A stretch of DNA of 64,000 nt from Acidimicrobiales bacterium. Its GTDB lineage: Bacteria > Actinomycetota > Acidimicrobiia > Acidimicrobiales > BPGG01. This document shows, piece after piece, positions 1 to 45,011 of the stretch. The stretch lies in the NCBI GenBank assembly GCA_026002915.1, contig BPGG01000001.1, forward strand, positions 597,468-661,467, written 5' to 3'. The translations under genes and the position numbers were made by a program. How positions within the stretch are numbered: the stretch's first letter is position 1; the number at the start of each line of letters is the position of its first letter. The notes under the pieces are model-generated. The model searched no databases, had not been told where the DNA came from, and saw only the letters and a list, made by a program, of their open reading frames with translations.

Positions 1-456
1 GGCCGGTGATCTCTCCCACTTGTCGTTCACTTCACGAGCGATGGCCGAAGTATCTGACATGCTCAAGGGTGAGACGACCAAGACCACCACCTTCGGGTTC
101 AGCCTCGGGAGCACGAACCTCTCGAGCCATTCCGCATCATGATGTAGCTGCGTTCCCCATAGACCCGCGTTGTACGCTCGGCCTCCGAAACGAGCGACGA
201 GCCTGGCGGGGTCCACCGAGCCTGCTGCGAGAGAGTTGCCCTGTATCAGTACCTCGATGCACCTTCCACTCGCGGCAATCCTGTCTAGTTGGGCGATCTT
301 GTCCTGGGCTATCCAGTTGTAATGGACGAGGGGCTCTCCCATTGCTCGTGCGATCGGGTAGAAGATCATGTTCACGGCTGCGAACGCTGCAGCGACCAGA
401 AGTGCGCGTCTCAGAAACGCCGCATTTGACAGCTTTCTCAGAACTGGAAGTACCAA
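1..456 (-). CDS. SGNH/DltD-like O-acyltransferase partner protein, N-terminal part only (gene runs off the left edge)
   Basis: Absent from the ORF track because it is open at the window edge. My reverse translation of 1-430 reads RKLSNAAFLRRALLVAAAFAAVNMIFYPIARAMGEPLVHYNWIAQDKIAQLDRIAASGRCIEVLIQGNSLAAGSVDPARLVARFGGRAYNAGLWGTQLHHDAEWLERFVLPRLNPKVVVLVVSPLSM. This is colinear with the 5982-7040 product (N-terminal TM helix, G-x-S block). It lies directly downstream of MBOAT 438-2036, as its paralog does. Start unresolved (TTG 456, or a CTG overlapping the MBOAT stop). Confidence 0.6.
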   Translation of the reverse strand, partial: MVLPVLRKLSNAAFLRRALLVAAAFAAVNMIFYPIARAMGEPLVHYNWIAQDKIAQLDRIAASGRCIEVLIQGNSLAAGSVDPARLVARFGGRAYNAGLWGTQLHHDAEWLERFVLPRLNPKVVVLVVSPLSMSDTSAIAREVNDKWERSPA

Positions 457-2036
457 AACTGCTCCCTTGCTCCGTGGGGAAAAGTGACCAGACTCGCGAC
501 CATCGCCGCCACGAACACTGCCCACACGATGTCCGGAAGCAGTGCCCGTCTCAGAGGCTCGTGTGTTTCACTCGAGCCCCCCGAGGCACGCCATTCGTCC
601 TCGAGTCTCTCCAAGCGAAGTTCGTATCGGTCTGTCGCATACACAGCTGCCAGGGCTATCGCCAAGACCATCAGGATCTCCGAACGCAAAGGTCCTCCGG
701 AGAAGCTGAAGAGATCCCTCCACAGGAGGGCCGCCTCGGCCAGGGATCCGACGGCTGGAATCATCGTGGCCAACGCGAAGGGGAAGATCGTGGCCACGAA
801 CCACTTCACACTCCCGGACGTGACGCCCAGCGACAAGCGCTCTGCCTCCGCCACGCGGACAGACGAGATCGCGGCGCCCGCGCTGCCTGGACGCAGCGGG
901 TACGAGCCGCCTGTGGCCATGAAGCAGGAGTCTCGGGGTGGCCGCACAATGCCGGCACGGCTCATCAAGTACTCGACGATCACGAACAGTCCGAGCAACC
1001 AGCCCCACACCACCATCGACCAGCTGGCGCCGTGCCAAAGGCCGGTTATGGTGAACACCACCGCGATGTTCCTCACCGTCCGGAGCGGACCACCCCTGTT
1101 CCCCCCCAGCGGTATGTACACGTAATCACGGAACCAGTTCATCAGCGACACGTGCCACCTGCGCCAGAGTTCTCCATGTCCGCGCGACCAGACAGGACGA
1201 AGAAAGTTTCTGGATATGTCGACACCCAGCAGCTTCGCGAACCCTCTGGCGAGCGCGGAGTAGCCCGCGAAGTCGCCATAGACGCGGAGTATGAACAGCA
1301 GAGCGCCCGCGAGGATCGTCGACCAGTGCACCGGCCGGGTGACGGTCTCTCCCAGCTCGACGGTGGTCCGCGACAAGGCGTCGGCGGCCAAGGGCGACAG
1401 GTTGTCGGCGACGACCACCTTCCGGAAGAGGCCGAGGAGTATCAGGTCTACGGCGATCATGGCCTCCGCCGCGCTGAGGCGGGTGGGCAGCGAGCGCAAC
1501 TGCGGTATCAGGTTCTTGGCCCGCTCTATGGGTCCGGCGGCCAGCTGGGGGAAGAAGGCCACGTAGGTGGCGAACACGACGAAGTCCGGCTCCGGCTCGA
1601 CGTGCCTGCGGTAGACGTCGATCGTGTAGCTCATCGACTGGAACGTGTAGAAGGAGATCCCGACAGGAAGGACTATGCGAAGCACGGCTTCGGGGGCTTC
1701 CAGGCCGAACGTCTCGGCGATCTTCGCGAAACTCCCGTAGAAGAAGTCGAAATACTTGAAGAACCCGAGGATCCCGAGGTTCACCGCGATCGAGACGAGG
1801 AGTATCTGTCGGCGCCTGTGAGGATCGACCTCCTGGCCGAGGGCGCGGCCTGCCAGGTAGTCGACGACTGTCGAGACGAACAGCAGGCCTAGGAATCTCC
1901 AGTCGAACGTGCCGTAGAAGAAGTACGAAGCCGACAAGAGGAGCCAAAGCCTCGGTCTGGGCCTGTTCCGCAGAGCCCAGTACGCGCCGAGTGTGGCCAG
2001 GAAGAAGGCGAAGTATTCGGCGGAGTTGAAAAGCAT
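438..2036 (-). CDS. MBOAT-family membrane O-acyltransferase (AlgI/DltB/PatA-like), copy 1
   Basis: 532-aa ORF starting MLFNSAEYFAFF. Polytopic. Carries FYTFQSMSYTIDVY, FFPQLAAGPIER and the histidine block RRWHVSLMNWFRDYVYIPLGG typical of AlgI/DltB-type MBOATs. About 60 percent identical by eye to the 7048-8628 product. Confidence 0.9.
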   Translation of the reverse strand: MLFNSAEYFAFFLATLGAYWALRNRPRPRLWLLLSASYFFYGTFDWRFLGLLFVSTVVDYLAGRALGQEVDPHRRRQILLVSIAVNLGILGFFKYFDFFYGSFAKIAETFGLEAPEAVLRIVLPVGISFYTFQSMSYTIDVYRRHVEPEPDFVVFATYVAFFPQLAAGPIERAKNLIPQLRSLPTRLSAAEAMIAVDLILLGLFRKVVVADNLSPLAADALSRTTVELGETVTRPVHWSTILAGALLFILRVYGDFAGYSALARGFAKLLGVDISRNFLRPVWSRGHGELWRRWHVSLMNWFRDYVYIPLGGNRGGPLRTVRNIAVVFTITGLWHGASWSMVVWGWLLGLFVIVEYLMSRAGIVRPPRDSCFMATGGSYPLRPGSAGAAISSVRVAEAERLSLGVTSGSVKWFVATIFPFALATMIPAVGSLAEAALLWRDLFSFSGGPLRSEILMVLAIALAAVYATDRYELRLERLEDEWRASGGSSETHEPLRRALLPDIVWAVFVAAMVASLVTFPHGAREQFWYFQF

Positions 2037-2091
2037 GTGAGAGTTGCGTCAGCCGTTCGGCCCCGACGAGATCCGGACCACGTGGGGCACC

Positions 2092-3144
2092 CTAGCCATC
2101 CGTTCCATGGAGGGGCGAGCCGAGCCGGGCCGGGACGCTGCCTTCGGGATCGCCCGTCGGGTCGAGACGCTCGTCGGTCAGAAACTCGACCTGCCCGGAG
2201 CGCGCCGCCGTCACGGCCGCCTCCGCACAGCGCACCGCCTGCCATGCCGGCGGCAGGAACTGCTCGCACACCCGCAGAGAGTCCTCGTGGCCGCTGAGGA
2301 GGCGTCCGAACAGTCGGATCTCCTCACCGAGGGGATCGCCGAACGACGAGGGAGGCTTCCCCACCACTGCGAACAGCGATCGCAGGAGCGCCGAGTCCCG
2401 CGCCACCGGCTCATGGAAGGCCAGAGCCGGACTTCCTATCTCGTCCAAGGTCACAGCGACGCGTTCGAACCTGATGGTCGTGTGTCTGACCCACGACTTC
2501 CCGAGCCGCGACGCGTACACGAGTGCATCCACTCCCGCTCCTAGGCGGACGTCGACCAATGCGCGGTCACCGTCGCCGTCCCCGGGCGGCGTGACCGCGG
2601 CCCGTACCGCCAGAGGCACGCCGCCCGAGACGAACACCAGGTTGGCGAAGTCGTGCACCGCGAGGTCCATCACCACTCCCGTGTCGGGATATCTGCGGGC
2701 GGGCCCCGCACGCACACAACGTGCACCTACCACCGTCCCGAGAAGCCCTGAGCCCGCGACCCTCCTGAGCCATCGGACGGCGGGACTGTGTAGGGTCGTG
2801 TGGCCGACGAGAAGAGGCACTCCCTCCTCTCGTGCGAGACGGCAGAGGCGCAGAGCCTGTGCAGCAGACAGCGACATGGGCTTCTCGACGAGGACACCGC
2901 AACCCTCCTCCAACGCGGCAGCAGCGTGGGCGTGATGCCAACTCGATGGTGAAGCGACCACGACCCCGTCCGGTCGGTGGCGTCGAACGAGGCTCTTCAG
3001 TCGCACGGCGGTGTCCTCGCCGTGGGTGCCGTCCAACTCGAATGCGATGACCAGACCAGAGGACTCGAGGCGCTCGCGCAACACCCGCCCCCACCGACCT
3101 GTGCCTACCATTCCGACTCGTGCCCGAGATCGCACCTCGACCAT
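2092..3144 (-). CDS. Gfo/Idh/MocA-family NAD(P)-dependent oxidoreductase
   Basis: 350-aa ORF. N-terminal Rossmann motif VGMVGTGRWG and the family EKP motif (VLVEKPMSLS). Start could instead be the internal ATG at 3111. Confidence 0.8.
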   Translation of the reverse strand: MVEVRSRARVGMVGTGRWGRVLRERLESSGLVIAFELDGTHGEDTAVRLKSLVRRHRPDGVVVASPSSWHHAHAAAALEEGCGVLVEKPMSLSAAQALRLCRLAREEGVPLLVGHTTLHSPAVRWLRRVAGSGLLGTVVGARCVRAGPARRYPDTGVVMDLAVHDFANLVFVSGGVPLAVRAAVTPPGDGDGDRALVDVRLGAGVDALVYASRLGKSWVRHTTIRFERVAVTLDEIGSPALAFHEPVARDSALLRSLFAVVGKPPSSFGDPLGEEIRLFGRLLSGHEDSLRVCEQFLPPAWQAVRCAEAAVTAARSGQVEFLTDERLDPTGDPEGSVPARLGSPLHGTDG

Positions 3145-3157
3145 CCTCGCGCGTCAC

Positions 3158-5014
3158 ATGAAAGGGGACGCCGCGCCGGCGGCCGTCCCGGCCCCTAGAA
3201 GCGAGCCGGGAGCCCGGACGCCGCTCTCGAAGCTTGTGGTGGCCACAGCCCTGCTGGCTGCCGTACCCCTCGTGTTGAACCCGATCGTCGCAGCGAGAGA
3301 AGGGTGGATGCCCGTGGGGGATGTGGCCCAGCACGAGGGGCTCGTGCGCGACGTGTGGAACGGCCACCTACCCCTCTTGGGTACAACCTCGACGCTCGAC
3401 GAGCAGTCGGGAGCCGAGAGGGATCCCGATCCGGAGAACCACCCGGGTCCGCTGCTCTACTGGATTCTCGCCGTCCCCTATCCGCTCTTCGAGAAGTCAG
3501 ACGCGGCCTTGCTCCCAGGGCTGGTGCTCCTCAACCTCGTTTCGCTCGCCTGCATCGTGTTCTTCGCGTCGAGAGCGGGCGGGCCGCAGGCGGCTCTCGC
3601 AGTCACGGCTCTCGCCTCGCTCGCAGTGTGGTTCCTGGGCCCGGCATTTCCCCACGATCCATGGAACGTAGAGGCCGTTCTCCTTCCGTTCCTCGCATTT
3701 CTCGTGGCGTCTTGGGCTGGGCTGCTTGGAAATCCGCCGGCGTGGCCGGCCGCCTTGTTCTTCGGCAGTCTCGCATTTCAGTCGCACACAGCGTATGGAG
3801 CGATCTTCGTCGCAGGCGTCCTCCTCGCGGGCGTCGGAGCACTTCGCGCCTACCGGGACACTCGCCTGAGAGGGGCGAACCACCGCTGGCTTTTCGTCAC
3901 TGCGATCGTGGCATTGTTCTGCTGGTCCGGCCCGCTCATCGAGGAGCTGCAACCAGGAAGGGGAAATCTCAGCGCCATGTTGAGTGGCCTACTCGAGAGT
4001 GGGAGGAAGACACTAGGACCGGCCAAGGCAGTGGCGCTGTTGGGTACACAGCTATGGCCTTGGCGATGGTGGTCTCAGCCGCACCCTCTGATGTGGGACC
4101 AGACCCCGATCCTTTCGCCTCTGCTGACTCTCGGCGCAGCGGTCACCGTGATGGTCTTGACGATGCGCGCTGCCGAAAACATCGCGCTTAAGGCCCTGAG
4201 CGTACACGGATTGGTCATGACGCTCGCAGGACTGGTCACCTGTACCTCGGCGCCTCAGATTGCGATCTTGGAGAGAGGAGTCCAACAGACATCCATCCGG
4301 TGGCTCTGGGTGCTCGGTCCGTGGCTCACGTTCGTCGCCCTGCTCGGTGCCCTCGTCCAGCTGCGTGCCGCCTTTCGCCTCAACTTCCGAAGCGTCCGAG
4401 TCGCCGCGGGACTGAGGATCTGCGCCTGCACGACAGTAGCCCTCTCCGTCGTGGCGGCCGCGTACCAGGCGGGAATCGGAGCCGACAGAGACGGTCCCCT
4501 CTACGAGACCGTCCGATCCTTGGCGGGACAGATCGAGTCCAGAGTCCCCACGACGGGTGAGTATGAACTGAAAGCCGAGGGAACGACCGCTTTTCTCCTC
4601 GTCGCGCCTTCGCTGGTCCCAGCTCTCGAGCGGCGGGGTTTCGACGTCTCGATCGCAAACGTTGAGGAAACAGAGTGGGGATCCCATCGAAAGCCTCGGG
4701 ATCCCGTCGCAACATTGCTGATCCTGAGCGGGCCGGGGGTCGAGAAGTGGTTCCAGGAGGGTGTGGAGGTGGCATCTTGGACCCCACATCGTCCCGCCGA
4801 CTCCGCGAGGAGGAACGAGACACTGCGACGCCAGCTCGTCGAATATCTGACCTCGAGCACCGAGCAACTCCCGCCTGCGGTGCAGGCGTTCCTGGCTACC
4901 GAGGACGAGGGTGGGCTCACCATCCCGATCCACCCGGAGATCGGCGCGCAGCCGTGGGTACGAGAGCTGCGCGCCACGGAACCCGTCGTCGTATGGCGCA
5001 TACCGGCGAAGTGA
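3158..5014 (+). CDS. Polytopic membrane protein, probable GT-C-fold (PMT_2/ArnT-like) glycosyltransferase
   Basis: Track ORF is 3011-5014. I start at ATG 3158 (MKGDAAP) because the upstream residues are R/P-rich and overlap the divergent gene. Many hydrophobic helices. The first loop contains DVAQHE and ENHPGPLLYW, resembling the acidic + HPPL loop of PMT_2/ArnT enzymes. Soluble C-terminal domain. The 3' end overlaps the GT2 gene by 22 nt. Confidence 0.55.
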   Translation: MKGDAAPAAVPAPRSEPGARTPLSKLVVATALLAAVPLVLNPIVAAREGWMPVGDVAQHEGLVRDVWNGHLPLLGTTSTLDEQSGAERDPDPENHPGPLLYWILAVPYPLFEKSDAALLPGLVLLNLVSLACIVFFASRAGGPQAALAVTALASLAVWFLGPAFPHDPWNVEAVLLPFLAFLVASWAGLLGNPPAWPAALFFGSLAFQSHTAYGAIFVAGVLLAGVGALRAYRDTRLRGANHRWLFVTAIVALFCWSGPLIEELQPGRGNLSAMLSGLLESGRKTLGPAKAVALLGTQLWPWRWWSQPHPLMWDQTPILSPLLTLGAAVTVMVLTMRAAENIALKALSVHGLVMTLAGLVTCTSAPQIAILERGVQQTSIRWLWVLGPWLTFVALLGALVQLRAAFRLNFRSVRVAAGLRICACTTVALSVVAAAYQAGIGADRDGPLYETVRSLAGQIESRVPTTGEYELKAEGTTAFLLVAPSLVPALERRGFDVSIANVEETEWGSHRKPRDPVATLLILSGPGVEKWFQEGVEVASWTPHRPADSARRNETLRRQLVEYLTSSTEQLPPAVQAFLATEDEGGLTIPIHPEIGAQPWVRELRATEPVVVWRIPAK

Positions 5015-5952
5015 CGCCGGCGCGAGTGCTGAGCATCGTCGTGCCCGCGCACGACGAACAGGACTCGCTGCCCGCCCTCCACGCCGGGATCGTGGAGGTG
5101 CTGCAGGAGCGTGACGTCGACTTCGAACTGGTCGTCGTCGACGACGCCAGCGAAGACGGCACGTGGGGGGCGATCGCACGACTCCACTCGCACGATCCGC
5201 GCGTCAAGGGGATCCGACTCTCCCGCAACGTAGGCGAACACATCGCCGTCTGGATCGGTCTGAAGCTGTCGGGTGGCAACCCGGTCGTCGTCATGGACGC
5301 CGACCTGCAGCACCCTCCCGAGGCGATCCCGTCGATGCTCGACGCCTGGAAGCGTGGCAACGCCGTCGTGTTGATGTGCCGCCGCGGCGGGCCGAAGGCG
5401 GGTCTCACGAGACGCCTCGGGGCCTCCGTCTACCACAACACCCTGCACTGGATCTCGGAGAATCCGATCCCGCCCGGCCACGGTGGCTTCGCCCTCTACG
5501 ACCGCAGCGTGGTGGATCGATTCGACACGGCACCCACGACGCCGCCTTTCTTCCGCGGCAGCGCACTGACGGTGGCAGCCGCGACAGAGGTCCTCCACTA
5601 TGAAGAGGCGCACCGCATCCACGGGGAGAGTCGTCACACGCTCTCTTCACTGTCGCAGACGTGGCTTCTCGCCTTCGTCTCGACGTCCCCGAGCCGGTCC
5701 GCTCGGCTGGCCTCAGCAGCTCGAGCCGTCTCCTGGCTATGCGCCGTGGCGGCAGTGGCCCGCGTCGCTCACGGGTCGAGTCGGCGTGAGGATCTCGTCC
5801 GCCGGCTCGCAGCTGCATGTGCCGCCGCTGCGACCGCCACCGCATGCGCCATCACGGGTGCGGCCATACGCAAGGTCTCCAGGCCTTTCTCCGTACCGTT
5901 TGGAGAGCTCGTGGCCGAGAGAGTCGGATTCGAGGCCCGACCCGACACCTGA
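4993..5952 (+). CDS. GT2 glycosyltransferase, polyprenyl-phosphate sugar synthase type (GtrB/ArnC/Dpm1-like)
   Basis: Track ORF is 4675-5952. Real start taken as ATG 4993 (MAHTGEVTPARVLSIVVPAHDEQDSL). Motifs VVVDDASEDGT and MDADLQHPP (DxD), with a hydrophobic C-terminal tail. Confidence 0.85.
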   Translation: MAHTGEVTPARVLSIVVPAHDEQDSLPALHAGIVEVLQERDVDFELVVVDDASEDGTWGAIARLHSHDPRVKGIRLSRNVGEHIAVWIGLKLSGGNPVVVMDADLQHPPEAIPSMLDAWKRGNAVVLMCRRGGPKAGLTRRLGASVYHNTLHWISENPIPPGHGGFALYDRSVVDRFDTAPTTPPFFRGSALTVAAATEVLHYEEAHRIHGESRHTLSSLSQTWLLAFVSTSPSRSARLASAARAVSWLCAVAAVARVAHGSSRREDLVRRLAAACAAAATATACAITGAAIRKVSRPFSVPFGELVAERVGFEARPDT

Positions 5953-5981
5953 ACCGTGCATCGGAGGCCAGACCGCCGAGG

Positions 5982-7040
5982 TCAGCCGCGCCGGTTGCAA
6001 CGTAAGGGAATCTGCATCCTCTCCAGGGCGTCTCCCAAAGCACGGCTGACCACCCCCGCCCCCCGTGCATTCAGGTGGAACGTGTCGTAGAACCAGTCCT
6101 CAGGCACCCGCGCTCCGGTCAGGTCCACCAAATGTGCGCCATGCCGTTCTGCCATGGAGCGGACGGCCCCATACGCCGTCTGCACGAAACTCTCACCACC
6201 CGGGAGCAGCCGCACGAAACGGCGCGAGTAAGGCATCATCACGAGCACCGGATCCACCTCGTCCCCGCTGTCCGTGAGAAAACCTTCCAGCACCTCGATC
6301 TCGCCTTCGTCCACTTCGGGTCTCCCCAACCAGTCGACCACCTGCCTCACCACCCGCTCGGTCTCAGCAGAGCCCTCGACGTAGGTCTGGTCGGGCGGCT
6401 GCACCGTGATGAAGCCGTTCTCGGGGAACCGACGTGCGAACTCCGCGGCGTTCGCCAGATCCTCGGGCGGACGCCCGCCGACCACGGAAGGCCAGTGGGC
6501 CGGGTCGGAGAGACGCTGCCGGTATCTCACAAGCGGCAGGAGACGAGCGAGGAGCCGGTCGAGCGTACCCAGCAGGCCAGGGCGGGTCGCACGGGACCTC
6601 TGCCACCCGTCCACCGTCTCTTGGATCAGCGTGCTGCTGGCGGAGAAGCTCACCGGAGACAGGACGAACATCGGACGCACCGATCCCAGCCGCGGCCGGA
6701 CCCATTCGGTGTACCACTCCACGTCCAACGAGACGGGGGTTCCGAGGATGGCGGCGTTGTAGATGTGTGCGCCCCCCCATCTGGGACCCACGATCTCCGG
6801 ATCGAACGAATGCATCCCGAGCGACGGACCCAGGACCACCGCGTCGACACACTCTCGCCTGCCTCTGATGGCGTCCATCTGATGCACCTTCGTCTGAGCC
6901 GGCCAGCTGTAGTGGTCGAGAGGCTCGACGACACGTTCCCCCGCCGCGGCCGCCAAGAGGTTGGAAGAGACGAACACCACGAGGACGCCGACCGTCAGGG
7001 GAAGCCATCCGAACCCACGGGCTCTCCGGCCGGCGATCAC
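5982..7040 (-). CDS. SGNH/DltD-like O-acyltransferase partner protein (PatB/AlgJ/DltD analogue), copy 2
   Basis: Track ORF is 5982-7106, but its first 22 codons overlap the MBOAT 3' end. I use GTG 7040 (VIAGRRARGFGWLPLTVGVLVVFV = signal-anchor), 9 nt after the MBOAT stop. G-x-S block (VVLGPSLGMHSFDP) and a C-terminal DxxH block (FYDTFHLNARG). Confidence 0.7.
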   Translation of the reverse strand: MIAGRRARGFGWLPLTVGVLVVFVSSNLLAAAAGERVVEPLDHYSWPAQTKVHQMDAIRGRRECVDAVVLGPSLGMHSFDPEIVGPRWGGAHIYNAAILGTPVSLDVEWYTEWVRPRLGSVRPMFVLSPVSFSASSTLIQETVDGWQRSRATRPGLLGTLDRLLARLLPLVRYRQRLSDPAHWPSVVGGRPPEDLANAAEFARRFPENGFITVQPPDQTYVEGSAETERVVRQVVDWLGRPEVDEGEIEVLEGFLTDSGDEVDPVLVMMPYSRRFVRLLPGGESFVQTAYGAVRSMAERHGAHLVDLTGARVPEDWFYDTFHLNARGAGVVSRALGDALERMQIPLRCNRRG

Positions 7041-7047
7041 AGTCCAC

Positions 7048-8628
7048 TCAGAACTGGAAGTAGAAGTAGGGCTCACCCGCGCCTCCCGAGAACACCAGAA
7101 GTGCACACACCATCATCCCGACACGCAGCCCCCAGAGAAACGACGCCGTCGAGTCGCCGACAGCCCGGCCCTCCTCGAGCGCCTCGACTGCGATCTCGTG
7201 GCGATCTCCGACGACCAGACCGGCCAGACCCCACAAAACTGCGAGCAGAGCCGCACCGTCCACGGCTCCACTGCCGAAGGTGATGATCGAGGTCCAAACG
7301 TCCACGGCATCCGACACCGACCGCAGAGGCAACAGGACGGTGAGTACGGCCAGTGGGATGATCGTCACCGCCACCCTGCCTGCCTCGAGTATCCGGTTCG
7401 GCAGAGTGGCGGCGCCCCGCTCACCAACGGCAGTGGGGCTCGGCTCGTCGCCGGCGGGGGGCGCTCCCTCCCTCACGGCTCCTGCGCCGACCTCGATCTC
7501 CCCCTGGTCGCCGACGCTGGTCGCAGCAGCACGCCTGCGACCACGCCGCAACGAGTGGTCCAACACGAGCAGCCCGCCAGCCGCCGAACCCCACAGCACC
7601 AGTGCCCAGCTGGCGCCGTGCCATAGTCCGGAGAGCGTGAACGTGACCATGAGGGCGAACCTCATCCTCGCCACTCCCCTCAGACGTAGACGCCGGTACC
7701 TCCTGCGCCAAAGCGGGTAGTAGACGTAGTCGCGGAACCAGTTCATCAACGTCACGTGCCAGCGCTGCCAGAACTCCTGCTGGGATCGGGACCAAAGTGG
7801 CCTGCGGAAGTTCCTCGAGATGTCGATCCCGAGGATCTTCGCCAGACCCCTGGCGATCGTCGAATACCCGGCGAAGTCCCCGTACAGCTGGACCATGAAT
7901 GCGAAGACGCCGACCCACGAGAGGATCCAGCTTGCCTCGACCGGCCTCCCGAACGCGTCTTGGGGACGCAGGGCGTCGCGCACCACGGGTGCCATCACGT
8001 CGGCCAGTGCCACCTTTCGGAACAACCCCAACAGGACGAGTTCGAGGCCGACCCGCACGGCCTTCGGGTCGATCCGTTCGGGGAGCGACCTGAGCTGCGG
8101 CACCAGGTCCCCGGCCCGCTCTATCGGGCCGGCCGCGAGCTGTGGGAAGAAGGCGACGTAGGTGGCGAAGACGATCGGGTCCTCTTCGGCCGTGATCTTC
8201 CCGCGGTACACGTCGATCGTGTAGCTCATCGACTGGAACGTGTAGAAGCTCAGGCCCACCGGCACGGCGATCTCGAGGAGCGGCGGGGACACGTTCCATC
8301 CGAGAGAACCGAGCAGATCTGCAGCCGAGGACACGAAGAAGTCGAAGTACTTGAACACTCCGAGGATCCCGAGGTTGGCCGAGACCGCCGCGACCATCAC
8401 CGTCTTGCGCGCCCCGGGGTCGCCGCTCCTCTGGATCAACCGTGCAGCCGTGAAGTCGATCGCCGTCGACAGGACGAGCAGACCCAGGAACCTCCAGTCG
8501 AAGAGGCCATAGAAGAAGTAGGAAGCACCCAGCAGCAGCAACTGCCGCAGCCTCTGGGACCGGATCGTCCAGTACGCCACGGCGACGACCACGAAGAAGA
8601 CAGCGAACTGCAGCGAATTGAACAGCAA
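7048..8628 (-). CDS. MBOAT-family membrane O-acyltransferase, copy 2
   Basis: 526-aa ORF starting MLFNSLQFAVFF. Same conserved blocks as copy 1 (FYTFQSMSYTIDVY, FFPQLAAGPIER, QRWHVTLMNWFRDYVYYPL). Ends YFYFQF. Confidence 0.9.
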   Translation of the reverse strand: MLFNSLQFAVFFVVVAVAYWTIRSQRLRQLLLLGASYFFYGLFDWRFLGLLVLSTAIDFTAARLIQRSGDPGARKTVMVAAVSANLGILGVFKYFDFFVSSAADLLGSLGWNVSPPLLEIAVPVGLSFYTFQSMSYTIDVYRGKITAEEDPIVFATYVAFFPQLAAGPIERAGDLVPQLRSLPERIDPKAVRVGLELVLLGLFRKVALADVMAPVVRDALRPQDAFGRPVEASWILSWVGVFAFMVQLYGDFAGYSTIARGLAKILGIDISRNFRRPLWSRSQQEFWQRWHVTLMNWFRDYVYYPLWRRRYRRLRLRGVARMRFALMVTFTLSGLWHGASWALVLWGSAAGGLLVLDHSLRRGRRRAAATSVGDQGEIEVGAGAVREGAPPAGDEPSPTAVGERGAATLPNRILEAGRVAVTIIPLAVLTVLLPLRSVSDAVDVWTSIITFGSGAVDGAALLAVLWGLAGLVVGDRHEIAVEALEEGRAVGDSTASFLWGLRVGMMVCALLVFSGGAGEPYFYFQF

Positions 8629-8749: not shown

Positions 8750-11188
8750 TCACCCCCACCCCGAGAGGAAGCCCTGTCGCCGAAGCAGTGCGGCGAGCCC
8801 CTGACGGTCGACGGCCTGCTGCGGTCTGAACGTGCCGTCGGGCCAGCCCAGCATGAGACCCACCTCGGCTGCCCAAGCCACCGACGCCGATCCGGCTGCG
8901 GATGCGGGCACGTCGCTGAAGGGCGGAGGGGACGAGGCCGGTGGAGACGACGCCAGTCGGTGCAACACGACCGCCGCCGCCGACCTGGTCAGGCTGTGGG
9001 CGGGCTTGAAAGTCCCGTCGGGATAGCCGCGCATCAACCCCGAAGATGCCGCCCAACCGATGGCGTTCCTCCACGGATGGTAGTCGGGAACGTCGGAGAA
9101 CCTCGGCGTTGGGAACGGACCGGGAGGTGACCCGGCCATCCGATACAAGACCACCGCAAGCTGCCCCCTCGTCGCGGCGGCGGCGGGAAGGAAGCGGCCG
9201 TCCGGGTCACCGACCATGAGCCCTCTCGCCGCCACCCAACCAATCTCGGTGAAGAACGGGGAGGTCCGCCCGATATCCGCGAACATCGAGTACGCGAGCA
9301 TCCTGTACAGCAGAACGGCGGCCTCCTGACGTGCCAGCTCCGCCGTGGGTCTCAGCCGCCCGTCCGCACCGCCGCGCGCTATTCCTGCCTTATACGCCCA
9401 GATGGAGGCTGAAACCAGCTCCCTGTCTGTGGTGGGGACGTCGGAGAACGGTGCCGGCCCACTCTGTGGAGGAGAACCCGCGAAACGCCACAACCAAACC
9501 AGCGCCGATCCACGAGAGATCGCCAATCCCCCTCGGAACAGCCCGTCCCCGAACGGTGACGCGATGCGCTTCTGCCCCAACCACAGCGCGGCCGTCGCAG
9601 TGTCACCCGAGGTGTCCGGGTAGGGGTCGCCGGTCGCCGGCTGCCTCCCCGCGAACCGCCACAACCATCGGGCCATCACACCGCGCGTGGTCGACCTCGA
9701 CGGTTCGAAGTCCCCGGCGGAAGGGACGTCCAACACACCCAGCTGCTTCATTGCTCCTATCTCCCGGGCGAACGGGTGGTCGGCGGGGACGTCTGGATAA
9801 GGCCCGGTGTCGTGCGCCCGGATCCGCCGGGCGATCATCTTTCGCAGTTCCCCGAGCCAACGCTCGGCGTTGTCGCCGGGACATGACGTCGCCGACACAG
9901 CCCGATGAGACGTGACGGTGGGCAGTACCACATCCACACCTTCGGGCCATCGTGTCGACCCGCCGCTCACCTCGGTCGTCACCCCGAACGGGTCGATGTC
10001 CCAAAGGTCGAACTTCCAGGCGAGCACGTCTGCGAGAGCGCCCAGCTGCTCCGTGGTCACCTCCGCTGCGGGGGGAGATGCAGACGGGTGGTACTGTCCG
10101 AGCAGCGCCACGCCCACGCTCCCCGAGTTGAAGCCCTTCGCATGGGCACCCGTGATCGGGCGTGTCATCGAGCCGGTCCGTCCTTCGAAGACGGTGCCGT
10201 ACCGGTCTACGAGGAAGTTGTAGGCGATGTCACACCAGCGGTTGCCGTCGGTGTGCGCCACGTATATGGCACGGACGAGGTCGTCCGCCTCCCAGGGCTG
10301 GTATGAGTTAGTGCTCACCGTGTGGTGCACGATCCCGAACCGCAGGGAGTCGGCGTCGAACGGACCGCCGGCGCAATCCGGATTCTCGTCTCTCCACGGC
10401 CCTGCACCCCATGCCGCCCGCGTGACGATCGCAGGCGCAGGAACGCCGGCAGCCACCTCCGCCGGTGCCCCGGAGGAGGGCACGGCAGCCTCCGCAGCCG
10501 TCTCCCCTGATTTCACCCGGGCCGTTGTGCCCGTCGACCGTGCCGGGGGGTTGGTCGACTCGTCGAGAGATCGGAGCACCTCCACGGTGAGGTCGAGGAT
10601 CTCGCCGGAGACGGGTCGAAGCTCCACGGCGTCGGTGCCGGCTCCGACCCACACGGGACCGGCCGTCACCCGACCCGGGTCACCCGGCTCGGTGCCCTCG
10701 TCGGGACCTTCGTCGGGCTCGACACCCACCTCCACCCACGGGCTCCACGCGCCGTCGCGGCGGCTGCGAACCTCGAGGTGTGCCTCCGCGGACCCCGACC
10801 ACCGGAGGATCACGGCATGGGCAGGGATCGGCAAGGGAACAGTGACAGTCCGCTGTGAGGACTGAGACTCCTCGTGGGTGTCATGAGCGTCGGCTTCCTC
10901 AGACCCTCCCGCCACCGAAGACCCTCCCGCCACCCAAGCTTCTCCTGCTGCCGAATCCTCTCCTGCCGCCGAAGCGTTCCCGCCATTCGGTGACCCGGCA
11001 GCGAGGTCGCCCACCGAAACGCTCCTACGTTCGAACCAGCGGTCTGCGAACTCCTGCGGAGACTCCGCCCGAGGAACACCCTCTTCGGACTGCGCCGGCG
11101 CGGCTCGGGAGACATGGACGGCCTGCGACGAGAGGACTGCCACGACGAGCGAACACCGCACGAGGCTGCGCACGGCCCGTCCGATCAT
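8750..11188 (-). CDS. Secreted N-acetylmuramoyl-L-alanine amidase (amidase_2/PGRP domain) with six C-terminal SLH repeats
   Basis: Track ORF 8750-11719 is over-extended into the upstream gene. I start at ATG 11188 (MIGRAVRSLVRCSLVVAVLSSQAVHVSRAAPA = signal peptide). Amidase_2 core: IVHHTVSTNSY, CDIAYNFLVDRYGTVFEGR, GAHAKGFNSGSVGVALLG. This is followed by six 55-60-aa repeats of the SLH pattern F-x-D-V...W...G...G...G-x-F-x-P. Confidence 0.85.
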   Translation of the reverse strand: MIGRAVRSLVRCSLVVAVLSSQAVHVSRAAPAQSEEGVPRAESPQEFADRWFERRSVSVGDLAAGSPNGGNASAAGEDSAAGEAWVAGGSSVAGGSEEADAHDTHEESQSSQRTVTVPLPIPAHAVILRWSGSAEAHLEVRSRRDGAWSPWVEVGVEPDEGPDEGTEPGDPGRVTAGPVWVGAGTDAVELRPVSGEILDLTVEVLRSLDESTNPPARSTGTTARVKSGETAAEAAVPSSGAPAEVAAGVPAPAIVTRAAWGAGPWRDENPDCAGGPFDADSLRFGIVHHTVSTNSYQPWEADDLVRAIYVAHTDGNRWCDIAYNFLVDRYGTVFEGRTGSMTRPITGAHAKGFNSGSVGVALLGQYHPSASPPAAEVTTEQLGALADVLAWKFDLWDIDPFGVTTEVSGGSTRWPEGVDVVLPTVTSHRAVSATSCPGDNAERWLGELRKMIARRIRAHDTGPYPDVPADHPFAREIGAMKQLGVLDVPSAGDFEPSRSTTRGVMARWLWRFAGRQPATGDPYPDTSGDTATAALWLGQKRIASPFGDGLFRGGLAISRGSALVWLWRFAGSPPQSGPAPFSDVPTTDRELVSASIWAYKAGIARGGADGRLRPTAELARQEAAVLLYRMLAYSMFADIGRTSPFFTEIGWVAARGLMVGDPDGRFLPAAAATRGQLAVVLYRMAGSPPGPFPTPRFSDVPDYHPWRNAIGWAASSGLMRGYPDGTFKPAHSLTRSAAAVVLHRLASSPPASSPPPFSDVPASAAGSASVAWAAEVGLMLGWPDGTFRPQQAVDRQGLAALLRRQGFLSGWG

Positions 11189-11267
11189 CCGCGTCGATGC
11201 TACGCGCACGATCCGAGCGGTGCAGCAGGGTCCGGCGATGACGTGTCCATCGACCAAGTCGTGTCCA

Positions 11268-12734
11268 TCAGTTCGAGTACCGGAACAGGAACGCCACCTG
11301 CTCCTGCCGAAGGACGCTCCCCGACGGTCTGAAGGTCCCGTCGGAGAAACCCGCCACGATCCCCTCAGATGTGGCCCACGAGATCTCGGTACGGAACGGA
11401 TGCGCGGGACCCACGTCCGAGAAACCCGGATCCGGGAAAGGCCCCTTCGGCGAACCCGCCAACCGGTACAAGAAAGCCACCGCCTCTTGCCTCTTGACCA
11501 CGTGATCCGGCCTGAAGGACCCGTCCTCGTACCCTCGGACGATCCCCCGGCTGGCGGCCCACGAGATCTCGGTACGGAACGGATGCGCGGGACCCACGTC
11601 CGAGAAACCCGGATCCGGGAAAGGCCCCTTCGGCGAACCCGCCAACCGGTACAAGAAAGCCACCGCCTCCTTGCGCTTGACGCCCTCCGTAGGTCGGAAC
11701 GTCCCGTCCCCATAACCACGGGCGACGTCCCTGCTCACCGCCCACGCCACCTCCGCCGCGAACGTGTAGAACTTCGGCACGTCGACGAAGATCCTCTGGT
11801 CGCACCGACCCCTACGCGCCGTCTGGTCGCAGAACCGCCTGGTGGTCGTCCAACCCAGCCCCACTCGGGCGTTGGTCCTCAGCTCTCGGGCGGCGCCCAC
11901 GTCCTCGGTGAGGCCGGTGTCTTCCCGCAGCCAGTGCCGGTACTCGTATCCACCGAAAGAGAACACGTAGAACGGTTTGGATATCGGTGACGGGCCGAAC
12001 GTCGGCGAGACGAACCCGCGGTAGCCCTGCGCCGCGGCAGGGTCCACATACCAGCAGGGGACCACCCACCTGTCGTCGAAGTCGCAAGTCCGCTGCACCG
12101 TCCCGCCCGATCTCTCGACCGCCGGGTCCTCGGCGACGCCCGTGAGACGGCCGTCTTTGTAGATCTCGGCGAAGATCGCCTCGCACTTGCCGTTTCGGCA
12201 GCCGTGCCAAGGCGCCCACGCGTAGGATCGGTCGGGCGACGCACACCATCGCCTGACGATCTCCGCGGCGGCGGTTCGGGCGGCCACCCAGGTGTCCATC
12301 CTCTCTGCGGCGGTGAGACCCCAGCCTCCCGCCGAGTCGAACTGCCAGGCCCCCACTCCCGGATGCCAGAACACACCCACGTATGGCGAGCTCGGGTCTG
12401 AGAAGGGATAGAGGGTGGAGTTCGTGTCCCAACGGGAGAGGGTCATCGGCGACGGTGCCTGTGTGCTCGGCGCCCCCGTCTCGGGGAAGGTCGGAGCGAG
12501 CACCATGGCAGCCAGTTCGTCCGCACCGAGACCGCACGAGGCGAACTCGGCTGCGGCTGCTCTCACGTCTGCAAGCGGCTGCGCGCCAAACGTCCTCGCG
12601 GGGGGCGGCTCCTCGGCGGCGGCATGCGACGGGGAGGTTGCCACCTGCCCGGCGAGAGCCAGGCAACCTGCCAACATAATCCGCCAGACGGGGATCGAAC
12701 TGCGCGCCACGAGCGTCGATGCGTTCGAACCCAT
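11268..12734 (-). CDS. Secreted protein with an uncharacterised Cys-rich N-terminal domain and three C-terminal SLH domains
   Basis: ORF 11268-12764. Start placed at ATG 12734 (MGSNASTLVARSSIPVWRIMLAGCLALAGQ = signal peptide), 8 nt after the upstream stop. C-terminus has three SLH repeats (FSDVGPAHPFRTEISWAASRGIVRGYEDGSFRP). I do not recognise the N-terminal ~300 aa; GVGAWQFDS faintly recalls lysozyme-like folds. Confidence 0.75.
   Translation of the reverse strand: MGSNASTLVARSSIPVWRIMLAGCLALAGQVATSPSHAAAEEPPPARTFGAQPLADVRAAAAEFASCGLGADELAAMVLAPTFPETGAPSTQAPSPMTLSRWDTNSTLYPFSDPSSPYVGVFWHPGVGAWQFDSAGGWGLTAAERMDTWVAARTAAAEIVRRWCASPDRSYAWAPWHGCRNGKCEAIFAEIYKDGRLTGVAEDPAVERSGGTVQRTCDFDDRWVVPCWYVDPAAAQGYRGFVSPTFGPSPISKPFYVFSFGGYEYRHWLREDTGLTEDVGAARELRTNARVGLGWTTTRRFCDQTARRGRCDQRIFVDVPKFYTFAAEVAWAVSRDVARGYGDGTFRPTEGVKRKEAVAFLYRLAGSPKGPFPDPGFSDVGPAHPFRTEISWAASRGIVRGYEDGSFRPDHVVKRQEAVAFLYRLAGSPKGPFPDPGFSDVGPAHPFRTEISWATSEGIVAGFSDGTFRPSGSVLRQEQVAFLFRYSN
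11373..11669 (-). repeat. Perfect 114-nt direct repeat (11373-11486 and 11556-11669, 183-nt period) inside the SLH gene
   Basis: Read directly from the sequence. Both copies read ggcccacgagatctcggtacggaacggatgcgcgggacccacgtccgagaaacccggatccgggaaaggccccttcggcgaacccgccaaccggtacaagaaagccaccgcctc. The period equals one 61-aa SLH unit. Confidence 0.95.
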
Positions 12735-12742
12735 GTGACACC

Positions 12743-13768
12743 TCACGACGGTTTCTCGGCCCAAAGGGACACTGCGGCGATCTCACCGGCGATCTCGACG
12801 CCCATCGGCCGATCAGGAACCAGAGCTACGTCGGCGGGGGCTCCGGGGGGTACGTCCGTCCTCCCCGGAAGCACGGCCCGTCCCCTGGCCACCGCCAAGA
12901 CGCGACCGGCGTCCGAGATCCACGCAGCCGTGACCACCGGGAGCGCGTCCGCTCGGTCGGCCCAGTTGCTCGCGGAGGCCACGAGAACCGGTCTGTCGGC
13001 CGGAGGTCCTTGGCTCTCGTCGAACCGTGAGACGAGGTGTTCTGGCAGGGGCGAGGCGTCCCCGACATGCCGTTCCCACAACCTGGAGAGTTCGAAGACC
13101 CCTCGCCGTCGCGTCACCTCCGCCCCGTCCGTCGCCGCCCCCGGGTCGGCCGACCATCGGACCTTCTCGACCACGCCGTCAGCGATCTCGACCTCCAAGG
13201 CGAACGGCACCGGTTCCCCCGGTCTCACTGCTCCTACGAGGGCGCTCGAGCTCCCCCGTCCGACCACGCGTCCTGAGCGGTCTCGCAACTCGGCATGGAC
13301 CACTACCGACTCGACCGGCTCTGCAGTCTCGTTCCGCACCAGCCCGAGCGCCCTCCAGGTCCGCCCTCGCCCGAGGTCCACCGTCTCGGTGGTGACGGTC
13401 TCGACCAGCACTCGCACGTCACCGTCCAGCCGGTCGGTCCACATCAGACCCGAAAATGAGGCGAGTTTCCTCGCAGCGCCGTCGGAGCCGTCGGACTCTC
13501 TCGCGGCGAGCTCCTGTGACGTCACCGAGCAGTCCGATCTCCGCTCGTGGACCCTGAGGCAACCCCTGGAATCGAACAGATGTGGTGTGCGCGCCGCAGG
13601 AGGCGGGAGCGTGGGGAGAACCGGGAATTCCCCGAGGCTTCGGCTCCTCGGCGGAGCACCAGTGCCTGCTCCCGAACCGACGCGCAACGTCCCGCCGTCG
13701 GACGAACAGCCGACTGCCAGCCATGCCGCCAGAGATGTGACGACGACAAGGAACCTTCCCCGTCTCAC
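12743..13768 (-). CDS. Lipoprotein of unknown function
   Basis: 341-aa ORF. GTG start preceded by GGAAGGAGGG. N-terminus MRRGRFLVVVTSLAAWLAVGCSSDGG has a lipobox (LAVGC). No recognisable catalytic motifs. Confidence 0.65.
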   Translation of the reverse strand: MRRGRFLVVVTSLAAWLAVGCSSDGGTLRVGSGAGTGAPPRSRSLGEFPVLPTLPPPAARTPHLFDSRGCLRVHERRSDCSVTSQELAARESDGSDGAARKLASFSGLMWTDRLDGDVRVLVETVTTETVDLGRGRTWRALGLVRNETAEPVESVVVHAELRDRSGRVVGRGSSSALVGAVRPGEPVPFALEVEIADGVVEKVRWSADPGAATDGAEVTRRRGVFELSRLWERHVGDASPLPEHLVSRFDESQGPPADRPVLVASASNWADRADALPVVTAAWISDAGRVLAVARGRAVLPGRTDVPPGAPADVALVPDRPMGVEIAGEIAAVSLWAEKPS

Positions 13769-13908: not shown

Positions 13909-15291
13909 CTACTGCCGCCGCCTCGACAGCCCTCTCGCCGACGCGATCCTCATCCACGACAGGGCCACGGCGGCGGACGCGACCAGGGCCGTCTCCACCC
14001 TCCAGTACAAGTCGTCAGAAAACGTGAGAGCCACGAGGAACGTCGCGAAGGCCGCGAGCCAGCCGGTGGCGAAGCGCGAGTGCAAGGACAGAGCGATCAC
14101 ACCCTGCCCTTCCGCCACCGCGACCATCAGCAGGACGGCCGACACCGCGAGCATGCCCATGTCGCGTCCGCCCAGCTCGCCGTCCACACCGAAGACGCCC
14201 CTCACCAGGATCGGCCCTACTGCCACCGCGCACAGCGTCCCACATGCCCCGAGCACGAGGAGGAGACGCCTGAGGCGGCCGAGGGCCGCGTCGAAGTCGT
14301 CCCATCTCTCGGAGCCCACCATGTGTGACAGCCGCGGGAGGAGGGAAGCGAGCACGGCCTGGAACAGGAACAACGGGCTGCGGGCTATCAGCAGACCGTT
14401 GAGGAACACGCCCGCAGCGGCCCTGTCCTCCTCGCCGGCCAACGCCTTCACCGCCACCACACCGCCGTTGACGATCAGCGCCATCGAAGCGATACCGACC
14501 AACAGCCAGCCGAGAGCCTTCGACAGCTCCGTCCACGATGCCGCCGGACCCTCGTCGAGCAACGGGCGAGGGTCGCGCAGTGACACCGCCGCCGCCAGGA
14601 GAGGCGCCCCTGCGGCCAACACCCCCCAAGCTCCGGCGGTCGTCACCGCTGCCGCCGCCAAGACGGCTCCGACCACCGGTCTCGACAGACCCTCCACCGC
14701 GAACAGGGTCCCGTAGTCTCGGAAGCGTCCATGTGAGGCAAGCAGGCCGCGTGCCATGTGCACGACGGCGAACGAGAAGAGCCCGAGGACGAGCACCAGG
14801 AGCATCTCCACACGTCCGTCGAACAGCCGAGGGAGCACCCACGGAGAGCTCACCGACAGGCCCACGGTCACGAATGCCGTGAAACCCAGGCCGAGCGCGG
14901 CCGCCTTCTCCACGACCGGCCGCACGCCCACATCGCGGGCTCGCCGCTCCGACACGGCGCGCGCCAGCTCTTGTTCGAGCGGCTGCATCACGCCGTTCCC
15001 GGCGGCGAACAGGGTCACCCACAGCACGGCGAGCAGCGAGTAGTCGGCCTCGGGCAGCACATGGGAGGCCATGGCGAGGAAGACGTATATGGCGACCCCG
15101 TTCACCACCAGCCCTACGGCGACCGGGATCGATCCTCGAGGAAGCGCCTCGGAGAATCTCTGCAGAAGGCGGCCGGGCGGCCCGCCTGGAGAGCCTGCTA
15201 CCTCCCGCCCTGATCCACCGGATGGGGCATGCAGTACTCGTCGTACTCGGCTATCGGGATCTGGTCTGGCTGCAGGCTGCACGCGGGGCAC
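13909..15291 (-). CDS. MOP-superfamily polysaccharide/lipid-linked oligosaccharide flippase (Wzx/MurJ-like)
   Basis: 460-aa polytopic ORF, roughly 12 hydrophobic segments by eye, with the Wzx-like N-terminal pattern (RLLQRFSEALPRGSIPVAVGLVVNG). The only plausible starts (GTG 15291 or 15282) overlap the upstream gene's 3' end by about 85-94 nt. Confidence 0.6.
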   Translation of the reverse strand: MPRVQPAARPDPDSRVRRVLHAPSGGSGREVAGSPGGPPGRLLQRFSEALPRGSIPVAVGLVVNGVAIYVFLAMASHVLPEADYSLLAVLWVTLFAAGNGVMQPLEQELARAVSERRARDVGVRPVVEKAAALGLGFTAFVTVGLSVSSPWVLPRLFDGRVEMLLVLVLGLFSFAVVHMARGLLASHGRFRDYGTLFAVEGLSRPVVGAVLAAAAVTTAGAWGVLAAGAPLLAAAVSLRDPRPLLDEGPAASWTELSKALGWLLVGIASMALIVNGGVVAVKALAGEEDRAAAGVFLNGLLIARSPLFLFQAVLASLLPRLSHMVGSERWDDFDAALGRLRRLLLVLGACGTLCAVAVGPILVRGVFGVDGELGGRDMGMLAVSAVLLMVAVAEGQGVIALSLHSRFATGWLAAFATFLVALTFSDDLYWRVETALVASAAVALSWMRIASARGLSRRRQ

Positions 15292-24663: not shown

Positions 24664-25309
24664 TCGGACGGGCCGGTACCCCTACGGCAGTGGACCCGGG
24701 AGGAAGGTCCCTGATCACCACCGCGCCCGCTCCGACCACGACCCACTCGCCGACGGTGACGCCCGGAATTACGGCCACGTGCGAGCCGAGCACCGATCCC
24801 GTTCCGATCCTCACGTTGCCGGAGATGTTCACGCTGGGATTCACCGTCACATAGTCGCCTATTACGCAGTCGTGGCCGACGGTGGCGTTCAGGTTCAGGT
24901 GGAAGTGGCGTCCTATCGTCACGTTCGTCGTGACCCGAGCCCCTGCGGCGATCACTGCGCCCGGTGCGATCCGCAGGTCCGACCCGAGCGTCGCAGAAGG
25001 ATGCACCAGAGTCGCCGCTTCGAGGCCGAGTTCACGGGCCACCAGATCCACCCGTCGCCTCGCAGCGCCGTCACCGATGCCGATCACGTAGCAGGCGTCG
25101 AAGTCGGACAAGGCTTCCACCGGGCCCAGGAGAGGCGCGCCTCTGCGCTCCAACGGGCCTTTGGCACTCGCAATGTCGTCGTCGAGGAAACCGAGTACGC
25201 GCCAAGTCGGCTCGACCCGGTTGATCGCCTCGACGATGTCGAGCACCTCCCTCCCGAAACCACCGGCTCCTACGATCACCAGGGAGCGAAGCGCCGAGGA
25301 TCCCATCAC
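24620..25309 (-). CDS. Sugar O/N-acetyltransferase, NeuD/PglD family (left-handed beta-helix)
   Basis: 229-aa ORF. N-terminal Rossmann-like LVIVGAGGFGREV, followed by hexapeptide repeats (IGRHFHLNLNATVGHDCVIGDYVTVNPSVNISGNVRIG). The 3' end overlaps the convergent metH by 44 nt. Confidence 0.8.
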   Translation of the reverse strand: MMGSSALRSLVIVGAGGFGREVLDIVEAINRVEPTWRVLGFLDDDIASAKGPLERRGAPLLGPVEALSDFDACYVIGIGDGAARRRVDLVARELGLEAATLVHPSATLGSDLRIAPGAVIAAGARVTTNVTIGRHFHLNLNATVGHDCVIGDYVTVNPSVNISGNVRIGTGSVLGSHVAVIPGVTVGEWVVVGAGAVVIRDLPPGSTAVGVPARPISERRSTSPEGGDR

Positions 25310-25374
25310 AGCAGCTCCCTGACGGTCACGGATCCCATCACACCAGTGCCCTCCGGCTCATGGATCCCATCACA
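25279..25374 (-). repeat. Three tandem 32-bp units, each beginning with the invariant 13-mer TGTGATGGGATCC (minus-strand reading)
   Basis: Read directly. The plus-strand 13-mer ggatcccatcaca occurs at 25298-25310, 25330-25342 and 25362-25374. The array spans the stop of gene 25370-26221 and the start of gene 24620-25309. Confidence 0.9.
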
Positions 25375-35309: not shown

Positions 35310-35311
35310 CG

Positions 35312-36571: not shown

Positions 36572-36581
36572 GCGTGCGCCC

Positions 36582-41524: not shown

Positions 41525-41576
41525 TCGACCTCCACTCCACGTTCCGGACGGGCTCGGCGGGTACGCTGCGAGGGCG

Positions 41577-44987: not shown

Positions 44988-45011
44988 TTCGTCTCAGCCC
45001 TCTGCCGGCGA

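Follow-up and report, generated by a model that had tools for sequence, protein, structure and literature searches.

Two paralogous MBOAT-SGNH acyltransferase pairs flank a putative glycosylation module next to SLH-protein genes in an Acidimicrobiales bacterium

Relays in which a membrane-bound O-acyltransferase (MBOAT) works with an SGNH-type partner are a general bacterial route to surface-polymer esters, and such esters influence lysozyme resistance, autolysin control, S-layer assembly and the properties of biofilm matrices. For PatA it has been shown experimentally that the tyrosine of an FxYxxF motif is auto-acetylated from acetyl-CoA in a histidine-dependent manner, and that the acetyl-tyrosine then passes its acetyl group to the serine of the SGNH partner (PMC12148441). 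The same report proposes the FxYxxF shuttle for all MBOAT-SGNH pairs, describes the hexapeptide fused to the MBOAT as the hallmark of the acyl-CoA-using class and, for the Dlt system, places the motif on the microprotein DltX instead (PMC12148441). In Bacillus anthracis two such pairs, PatA1/PatB1 and PatA2/PatB2, acetylate the secondary cell wall polysaccharide (SCWP), the polymer that anchors S-layer homology (SLH) proteins; when patA1 and patA2 are lost, the SCWP is less acetylated and EA1, BslO and BslA are retained to a lesser extent (PMC7759979). Here we describe a cassette with two MBOAT-SGNH pairs at the left end of a 64,000-nt stretch of an Acidimicrobiales genome (assembly GCA_026002915.1, contig BPGG01000001.1, positions 597,468 to 661,467), referred to below as the window.

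We consider it probable that this cassette encodes two parallel MBOAT-SGNH acyl relays together with one glycosylation module of the Gtr/Arn type, acting on an extracytoplasmic glycan. The genes were mapped from a listing of open reading frames (ORFs), third-position GC and Pfam and NCBIfam family scans. Seven cassette genes form three transcription units. One, on the minus strand, runs from a Gfo/Idh/MocA NAD-dependent sugar oxidoreductase (Gfo, 2092-3111) through MBOAT1 (438-2036, 532 residues), 55 nt downstream of it, to partner 1 (1-456), of which the N-terminal 152 residues are in the window and the remainder lies past its left edge. The second, on the plus strand, consists of a polytopic glycosyltransferase with a GT-C fold (3158-5014) and a GT2-family polyprenyl-phosphate sugar synthase of the GtrB/ArnC/DPMS type (4993-5952), which overlap by 22 nt as the first-pass annotation had stated. 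The third, again on the minus strand, runs from MBOAT2 (7048-8628, 526 residues, TTG start) to partner 2 (5982-7040, complete with 352 residues, GTG start) and possibly continues from the SLH-protein genes upstream. The starts of Gfo at 3111 and of the GT-C gene at 3158 are likely ones, since genes called on a Logan contig of identical sequence begin there. The same cassette is present on this 6.6-kb contig (DRR290133), and NCBI protein KatS3mg008_0543, from the metagenome-assembled genome (MAG) of an Acidimicrobiales bacterium, has the same sequence as the GT-C protein. The window has ∼66% G+C, and third-position GC is high (0.79-0.85) in the intact cassette ORFs. A scan for promoters and terminators gave signals not above chance.

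The closest precedent is the B. anthracis PatA1/PatB1 and PatA2/PatB2 system. Both genomes have two MBOAT plus SGNH-type pairs and SLH-anchored wall proteins, and here the pairs lie beside an SLH-anchored murein hydrolase. The present locus differs in its host, a member of the Actinomycetota and Acidimicrobiales, and in its DltD-like partner, which has no PatB1-type structure among its top matches. It differs also in that the two pairs bracket the GT-C/GT2/Gfo trio and are each other's closest relatives, which indicates a lineage-specific duplication. The underlying principle and mechanism are already known, as is a twin arrangement beside SLH proteins, and the locus leaves the known mechanism unchanged. 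What it adds is a clean example from a little-studied actinobacterial order, an AlgI-type MBOAT with a fused tail that pairs, in many phyla, with a DltD-like family lacking a dedicated model, and a small GT-C family repeatedly tied to O-acyltransferases.

The two MBOATs are paralogues (43% identity, E 1e-130) at the positions first assigned to them, and both start with MLFNS and end in YFQF. Pfam MBOAT (PF03062, cutoff 27 bits) is matched by MBOAT1 with 101.7 bits (E 6.6e-29) and by MBOAT2 with 98.6 bits (E 5.8e-28). Both also match structures of DltB at E about 6e-28, and their histidine aligns with that of the DltB RWH; in MBOAT2 this residue is His291 (DltB 6bug, E 5.7e-28). In MBOAT1 the corresponding block contains His295, within RWHVSLMNWFRDYVY, encoded by codon 1152-1154. 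The histidine block described in the first-pass annotation is indeed common to the two proteins, as RWHV[ST]LMNWFRDYVY; the R-x-W-H spelling given for it does not hold, MBOAT2 reading QRWH. The last six residues are FWYFQF in MBOAT1, with Tyr529 at codon 450-452, and YFYFQF in MBOAT2, with Tyr523 at codon 7060-7062; the YFQF end of both is that of the published FxYxxF acyl-tyrosine shuttle motif (PMC12148441). The motif, as C-terminal F-x-Y-F-x-F, is present in 83 of 86 MBOAT ORFs from the window and related loci. Two of the three exceptions are at sequence ends (L001, whose ORF is cut at the contig end, and L076, whose ORF stops a single base short of the end of the locus), and the third (L018) is unexplained. 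Because the motif is fused to the MBOAT and DltA, DltC and DltX are not found among the window ORFs scanned, both MBOATs are assigned to the acyl-CoA-using class. Pfam match, catalytic histidine, fused tail and adjacent partner gene are all as in SGNH-paired MBOATs of the AlgI/PatA/WssH type, and auto-acylation followed by transfer to a glycan is predicted for both proteins by analogy.

We also compared the two partner proteins. They had been described as paralogous, each directly following its MBOAT. Paralogy is borne out (35% identity across 147 residues, E 1e-26). The placement stands for partner 2, which begins 7 nt past the MBOAT2 stop; partner 1 instead overlaps MBOAT1 by 19 nt. Its sole canonical start is a TTG at 456, and the overlap takes in the shuttle-tyrosine codon. 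Partner 1 matches the family profile (E 8e-40) and has a G-N-S motif with Ser75 (codon 232-234) and a Y-N-A-G motif with Asn96. Since its C-terminus lies outside the window, a full-length orthologue with 74% identity (P0002) was used as a proxy. This protein keeps a D-H-I-H motif, and its gene sits behind an MBOAT tail ending in REQFWYFQF. No called gene for MBOAT1 is on record in public protein collections, and the 152-residue fragment of partner 1 had no match in a word-index search of 5.8 billion proteins. The GT-C protein of the same MAG is nevertheless in NCBI; the two genes may be missing from the deposited annotation or called differently there.

Partner 2 matches Pfam DltD (PF04914) with 23.2 bits against a cutoff of 22.7 (E 5.3e-5), over just 67 C-terminal residues, and scores 19 bits against the DltD equivalog TIGR04092, whose cutoff is 150. 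By these scores it is a DltD-like protein and not a DltD orthologue. It had no direct sequence match in the PDB, and a word-index protein search returned only the protein itself. When HMMER was run exhaustively over 1.84 billion representatives, 311 relatives were found (E ≤ 0.001), the closest being 33-35% identical. In an alignment of 61 sequences G71, S73, R174, D319 and H322 (partner 2 numbering) are invariant and N95 is near-invariant, which gives SGNH blocks I (G-x-S), III (Asn) and V (D-x-x-H). Pfam Lipase_GDSL_2 is matched by 49 of these 61 family members, DltD by 32 and ALGX by 11. An AlphaFold2 model of partner 2 has a predicted local distance difference test score (pLDDT) of 92 and a predicted template-modelling score (pTM) of 0.90, with a transmembrane helix at residues 12-34; the RRAR stretch ahead of this helix would place the catalytic domain outside the membrane. 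When the model was compared with the PDB by Foldseek, the top matches were DltD (6pfx, 6o93 and 7dxm), then SGNH esterases, and all 22 matches with E ≤ 0.001 were DltD or SGNH/GDSL-type esterases and lipases, including platelet-activating factor acetylhydrolase. The partner-family profile gave DltD 3bma as its best PDB match (E 4.6e-7), with AlgX at just E 0.03. No entry described as PatB, PatB1 or AlgJ is among the top 50 Foldseek matches of partner 2, and none described as PatB among the 24 PDB profile matches of the family. The view that the partners are SGNH/DltD-like proteins with catalytic serine and histidine is supported by the model, the Foldseek matches to DltD and the retention of Ser, Asn, Asp and His.

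The three genes between the pairs are of the types originally proposed. The GT2 (Pfam Glycos_transf_2, E 1.6e-26) matches GtrB (5ekp, E 7.5e-31) as well as DPMS (5mlz) and ArnC (9hwj) in the PDB, and its best NCBIfam matches, each below cutoff, are PgfS and ArnC. These matches identify it as a polyprenyl-phosphate sugar synthase. Two hydrophobic C-terminal segments were read from its sequence by eye. The Gfo protein (Pfam GFO_IDH_MocA, E 4.3e-16, plus the C3 domain) has 7bvj as its best PDB match (E 9e-16) and UDP-GlcNAc 3-dehydrogenase as its best NCBIfam match, with 84 bits against a cutoff of 450; it most resembles sugar-nucleotide 3-dehydrogenases, with scores well under the family cutoffs.

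The GT-C protein has no NCBIfam match and reaches 18.8 bits (E 0.002) against Pfam PMT_2, whose cutoff is 26.1. Its AlphaFold2 model (pLDDT 81, pTM 0.86) matches STT3, ALG9, AftA, PglB, AglB and EmbA/B with a Foldseek probability of 1.00, and DPY19 and PimE with 0.95-0.97. On this model it is an enzyme of the GT-C fold, from a small family without a Pfam model; its 22 homologues are all annotated as hypothetical and none has a Pfam domain. An alignment of 21 sequences shows D55 and the PGP at residues 96-98 to be invariant, and the helix order of the model would put D55 in the first outer loop. Homologues occur in actinobacterial wall-glycan clusters with AftD-like and DprE1/DprE2-like genes and a GtrA-GT2 fusion. 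Elsewhere a homologue adjoins an Acyl_transf_3 (AT3) gene (L083, 6496-7713), and another, P0165 (981 residues), is fused to an AT3 domain; the family is therefore repeatedly tied to O-acyltransferases of two membrane classes, MBOAT/SGNH here and AT3 in those cases. The homologues accompanied by DprE1/DprE2-like genes, a GT2-GtrA fusion and AftD-like GT-C genes are in L084 (97-2281 and 9797-10990) and L085 (11480-15109), wall-glycan clusters of the arabinan type from outside the Mycobacteriales.

The arrangement of the middle genes resembles GtrA/GtrB/GtrC and ArnC/ArnT, in which a GtrB/ArnC-like GT2 goes with a GT-C-fold transferase; here the two are translationally coupled, and an oxidoreductase of the sugar-nucleotide type is close by, which is true of the Arn pathway too. 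In contrast to those systems, the GT-C belongs to the small family just described, and the cassette has no flippase or aminotransferase.

In order to determine how widely MBOAT and partner occur together, genomes and metagenomes were scanned with the MBOATs, which gave 160 loci from many phyla with best identities of 38-53%. Adjacency was counted where 1.1 kb or more of sequence was available downstream of the MBOAT, the partner ORF being scored by the family profile. A same-strand partner-family ORF lies directly downstream of 45 of 77 genome MBOATs and 29 of 47 metagenome MBOATs, together 74 of the 124 relatives that could be tested (about 60%), which span many phyla. The adjacency is thus conserved among relatives. 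With partner fold and residues and the matches of the middle genes, it supports the earlier assignment of the locus to relays of the PatA/PatB, AlgI/AlgJ and DltB/DltD type. In the metagenome scan MBOAT1 found neither a match above 53% identity nor another copy of the cassette, and an alignment of partner 1 with P0002 found no relatives. Loci with two MBOATs, or with an MBOAT between two partner-family ORFs, are rare. They comprise two divergent MBOATs with partner-family ORFs (L014), two MBOATs (L078), two MBOATs in tandem (L106), the order MBOAT, partner, MBOAT (L148), and the order partner, MBOAT, partner in an Ilumatobacter MAG (L005, 6145-10588); none of these five has a GT-C or SLH neighbour. 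The gene order of the window is partially echoed by Gfo-MBOAT-partner in an Armatimonadetes MAG (L004, 6841-10443) and by partner-MBOAT-GT2 in an Acidimicrobiaceae MAG (L007, 6937-10408).

Whether the two pairs arose by tandem duplication or by independent acquisition had been left to a phylogeny. Neighbour-joining trees were computed in numpy with 200 bootstraps; they are distance-based, and close relatives are sparsely sampled. In a tree of 84 MBOATs, MBOAT1 and MBOAT2 are sisters in 200 of 200 bootstraps. Both partners form a four-member clade with P0002 and P0003, and a clade of at most 12 members holds them in 179 of 200 replicates. Because the MBOATs are sisters and the partners fall in one small clade, the trees favour the view that the whole pair was duplicated long ago within the lineage, and independent acquisition of two pairs was rejected on the same grounds.

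By homology to PatA/PatB and DltB/DltX/DltD, the two relays would each work as follows. The polytopic MBOAT would take up an acyl group on the cytoplasmic side, most likely acetyl from acetyl-CoA, and His295 (MBOAT1) or His291 (MBOAT2) would acylate the tyrosine of the protein's own C-terminal hexapeptide. The tail would then hand the acyl group to the serine of the membrane-anchored SGNH partner (in partner 2, Ser73 with Asp319, His322 and Asn95), which would esterify a hydroxyl of the polymer. Every residue needed by such a relay is present. In parallel, the GT2 would place a sugar on polyprenyl phosphate, the Gfo enzyme perhaps modifying this sugar beforehand, and after flipping the GT-C would transfer it onto this polymer or one related to it. 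Acetyl is the probable acyl group, judged like the sugar and the polymer from context, and the two relays probably differ in the position, sugar or polymer that is acylated.

As to the polymer, a secondary wall polysaccharide linked to peptidoglycan, to which the neighbouring SLH proteins would bind, is preferred to peptidoglycan itself and to exopolysaccharide, since SLH genes lie directly upstream, the GT-C family occurs in wall-glycan clusters and B. anthracis provides a precedent. We hold this assignment tentatively, at somewhat less than an even chance. Several observations weigh against it or against the relay itself. About 40% of related MBOATs have no recognisable partner-family gene directly downstream. 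None of the 160 related loci has an SLH neighbour (E ≤ 1e-5), and the substrate assignment depends on adjacency in one genome. SLH adjacency is also the one feature of a B. anthracis-type SCWP system that is seen: no csaB pyruvyl transferase, LytR-CpsA-Psr (LCP) ligase or TagO-type gene turned up among the window ORFs scanned. Another substrate could come from the separate Wzx/Wzy polysaccharide cluster (33576-49730). Only part of partner 1 lies in the window, and its D-x-x-H motif is seen only in the 74%-identical orthologue; the first position of the shuttle motif in MBOAT2 is Tyr and not Phe, although the shuttle tyrosine is kept. A more specific proposal is that the island is an independently evolved actinobacterial counterpart of PatA1B1/PatA2B2, in which a sugar that a hitherto undescribed GT-C family transfers from polyprenyl phosphate, possibly oxidised at C-3, and acylation at two sites or with two groups together modify the SLH-anchoring polysaccharide and govern retention of the SLH amidase. 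As a whole this is improbable; if it were true, a widespread DltD-like partner family would gain its first assigned function outside D-alanylation.

The modules might instead O-acetylate peptidoglycan at O-6 of N-acetylmuramic acid (MurNAc), as PatA/PatB do, and so tune the adjacent SLH amidase and other autolysins. An Amidase_2 plus SLH hydrolase is indeed encoded directly upstream on the same strand and an M23 peptidase elsewhere in the window. One MurNAc O-6 site, however, hardly explains why there are two diverged modules together with a GT-C/GT2 pair. In B. anthracis, PatA/B were themselves reportedly assigned to peptidoglycan at first. Their assignment was later changed to the SCWP (PMC7759979). 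Among MBOAT-SGNH pairs PatA/PatB is the best studied, and the Neisseria and Campylobacter proteins share with ours the invariant MBOAT histidine, the C-terminal FxYxxF tail and a membrane-anchored SGNH partner with Ser-His-Asp (PMC12148441). Our partner, however, is not detectably a homologue of PatB, and DltD and SGNH esterases of a generic kind are its nearest solved relatives; MurNAc is probably not the substrate, and the organism is probably a monoderm. We regard the peptidoglycan alternative as unlikely. A comparably low probability attaches to acylation of a secreted or capsular polysaccharide, as by AlgI/AlgJ/AlgX or WssH/WssI, for which the product of the Wzx/Wzy cluster is one candidate. 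Related MBOAT-partner pairs are mostly from diderm phyla and lack SLH neighbours, the ALGX model is matched by some of the partner family, and the window has a large polysaccharide cluster with sulfotransferases at 33.5-49.7 kb. As in the AlgI/AlgJ/AlgF/AlgX and WssH/WssI systems, an AlgI-type MBOAT with an F-I-Y-F-Q-F-like end is directly followed by the gene for an SGNH-like transferase. The cassette, however, has no AlgF, AlgX or polymer synthase, and its partner has a single N-terminal anchor and a DltD-like architecture. Moreover, the Wzx/Wzy cluster is 25 kb away, past ∼17 kb of mostly housekeeping genes, whereas the cassette borders wall-anchored proteins and the GT-C homologues are in wall-glycan and not exopolysaccharide clusters.

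Two other explanations fare worse. A Dlt-like role, in which D-alanine or another aminoacyl group borne by a carrier protein is transferred to a teichoic-acid-like polymer, draws on the fact that DltB is the solved structure closest to the MBOATs and DltD the one closest to the partner, and the relay logic of DltB/DltX/DltD is the same. Yet MBOAT1 and MBOAT2 score 125 and 154 bits against the NCBIfam DltB equivalog (TIGR04091), whose cutoff is 375, and partner 2 is similarly far from that for DltD. On these scores membership in the Dlt pathway was rejected. The hexapeptide is moreover on the MBOAT and not on a DltX, which marks the acyl-CoA class (PMC12148441), and the Dlt genes named above are missing from the window ORFs scanned. 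A Dlt-like role is effectively excluded. It is also very improbable that the partners are de-O-acylating esterases, or that one pair is a decaying duplicate, leaving a single functional acyltransferase module. The SGNH fold is common to esterases, and these rank next after DltD in the structural comparison. Against this, tight coupling to the MBOAT is kept across phyla and seen here in the 7-nt gap and 19-nt overlap, both MBOATs, partner 2 and the orthologue of partner 1 retain all their catalytic residues, and the ORFs are intact with the high third-position GC given above.

The two SLH proteins adjoining the cassette, claimed in the first-pass annotation, are both recovered on the minus strand. 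The nearer gene (8750-11188) encodes an N-acetylmuramoyl-L-alanine amidase with four SLH domains (Amidase_2 E 1e-12; Pfam SLH E 9e-47). It is upstream of MBOAT2 with a gap of 121 nt and is regarded as context, not as a proven part of the system. Its probable start is MIGRAV at 11188; the longer ORF listed for it (8750-11719) overlaps the second SLH gene in another frame. This second gene (11268-12764) encodes a wall protein with three SLH domains (Pfam SLH E 1.6e-34) and an N-terminal domain without a family match, and is likewise regarded as context. Within it, at 11373-11709, is a 183-nt tandem duplication of 1.8 copies with 90% match, which reflects the recent duplication of an SLH repeat unit. 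A gene for an FxLYD-domain protein (12743-13768, minus strand; NCBIfam E 9.7e-8) lies on the same strand as the SLH genes and directly upstream of them. Just past it, 13909-15291 (minus strand) encodes a polytopic membrane protein of 460 residues that matches nothing in Pfam or NCBIfam, even with the threshold relaxed to E 0.1, and could be a flippase or polymerase of a wall-glycan pathway.

Other genes of the window were also noted. The cluster at 33576-49730 includes Wzz/BY-kinase-like, UDP-glucose dehydrogenase and heparinase II/III-like genes, a GT4 plus Bac_transf fusion (38500-40428), several GT4s, Wzx, a Wzy-like gene and two sulfotransferases (46156-47235 and 48717-49730). Its gene content suggests a sulfated polysaccharide as the product. 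Genes resembling those for synthesis of amino sugars of the bacillosamine type are scattered over 53522-58807 and 24620-25357, and include a DegT aminotransferase, a PglF-like dehydratase, a fusion of ADH_zinc with Gfo/Idh/MocA (54741-57131) and a PglD-like hexapeptide acetyltransferase. Finally, a LipB-type octanoyltransferase domain and the lipoyl synthase LipA are fused in one ORF at 27352-29082 (minus strand; LplA-B_cat, Radical_SAM and LIAS_N), which adjoins the genes for the E2 and E3 components of a 2-oxoacid dehydrogenase.

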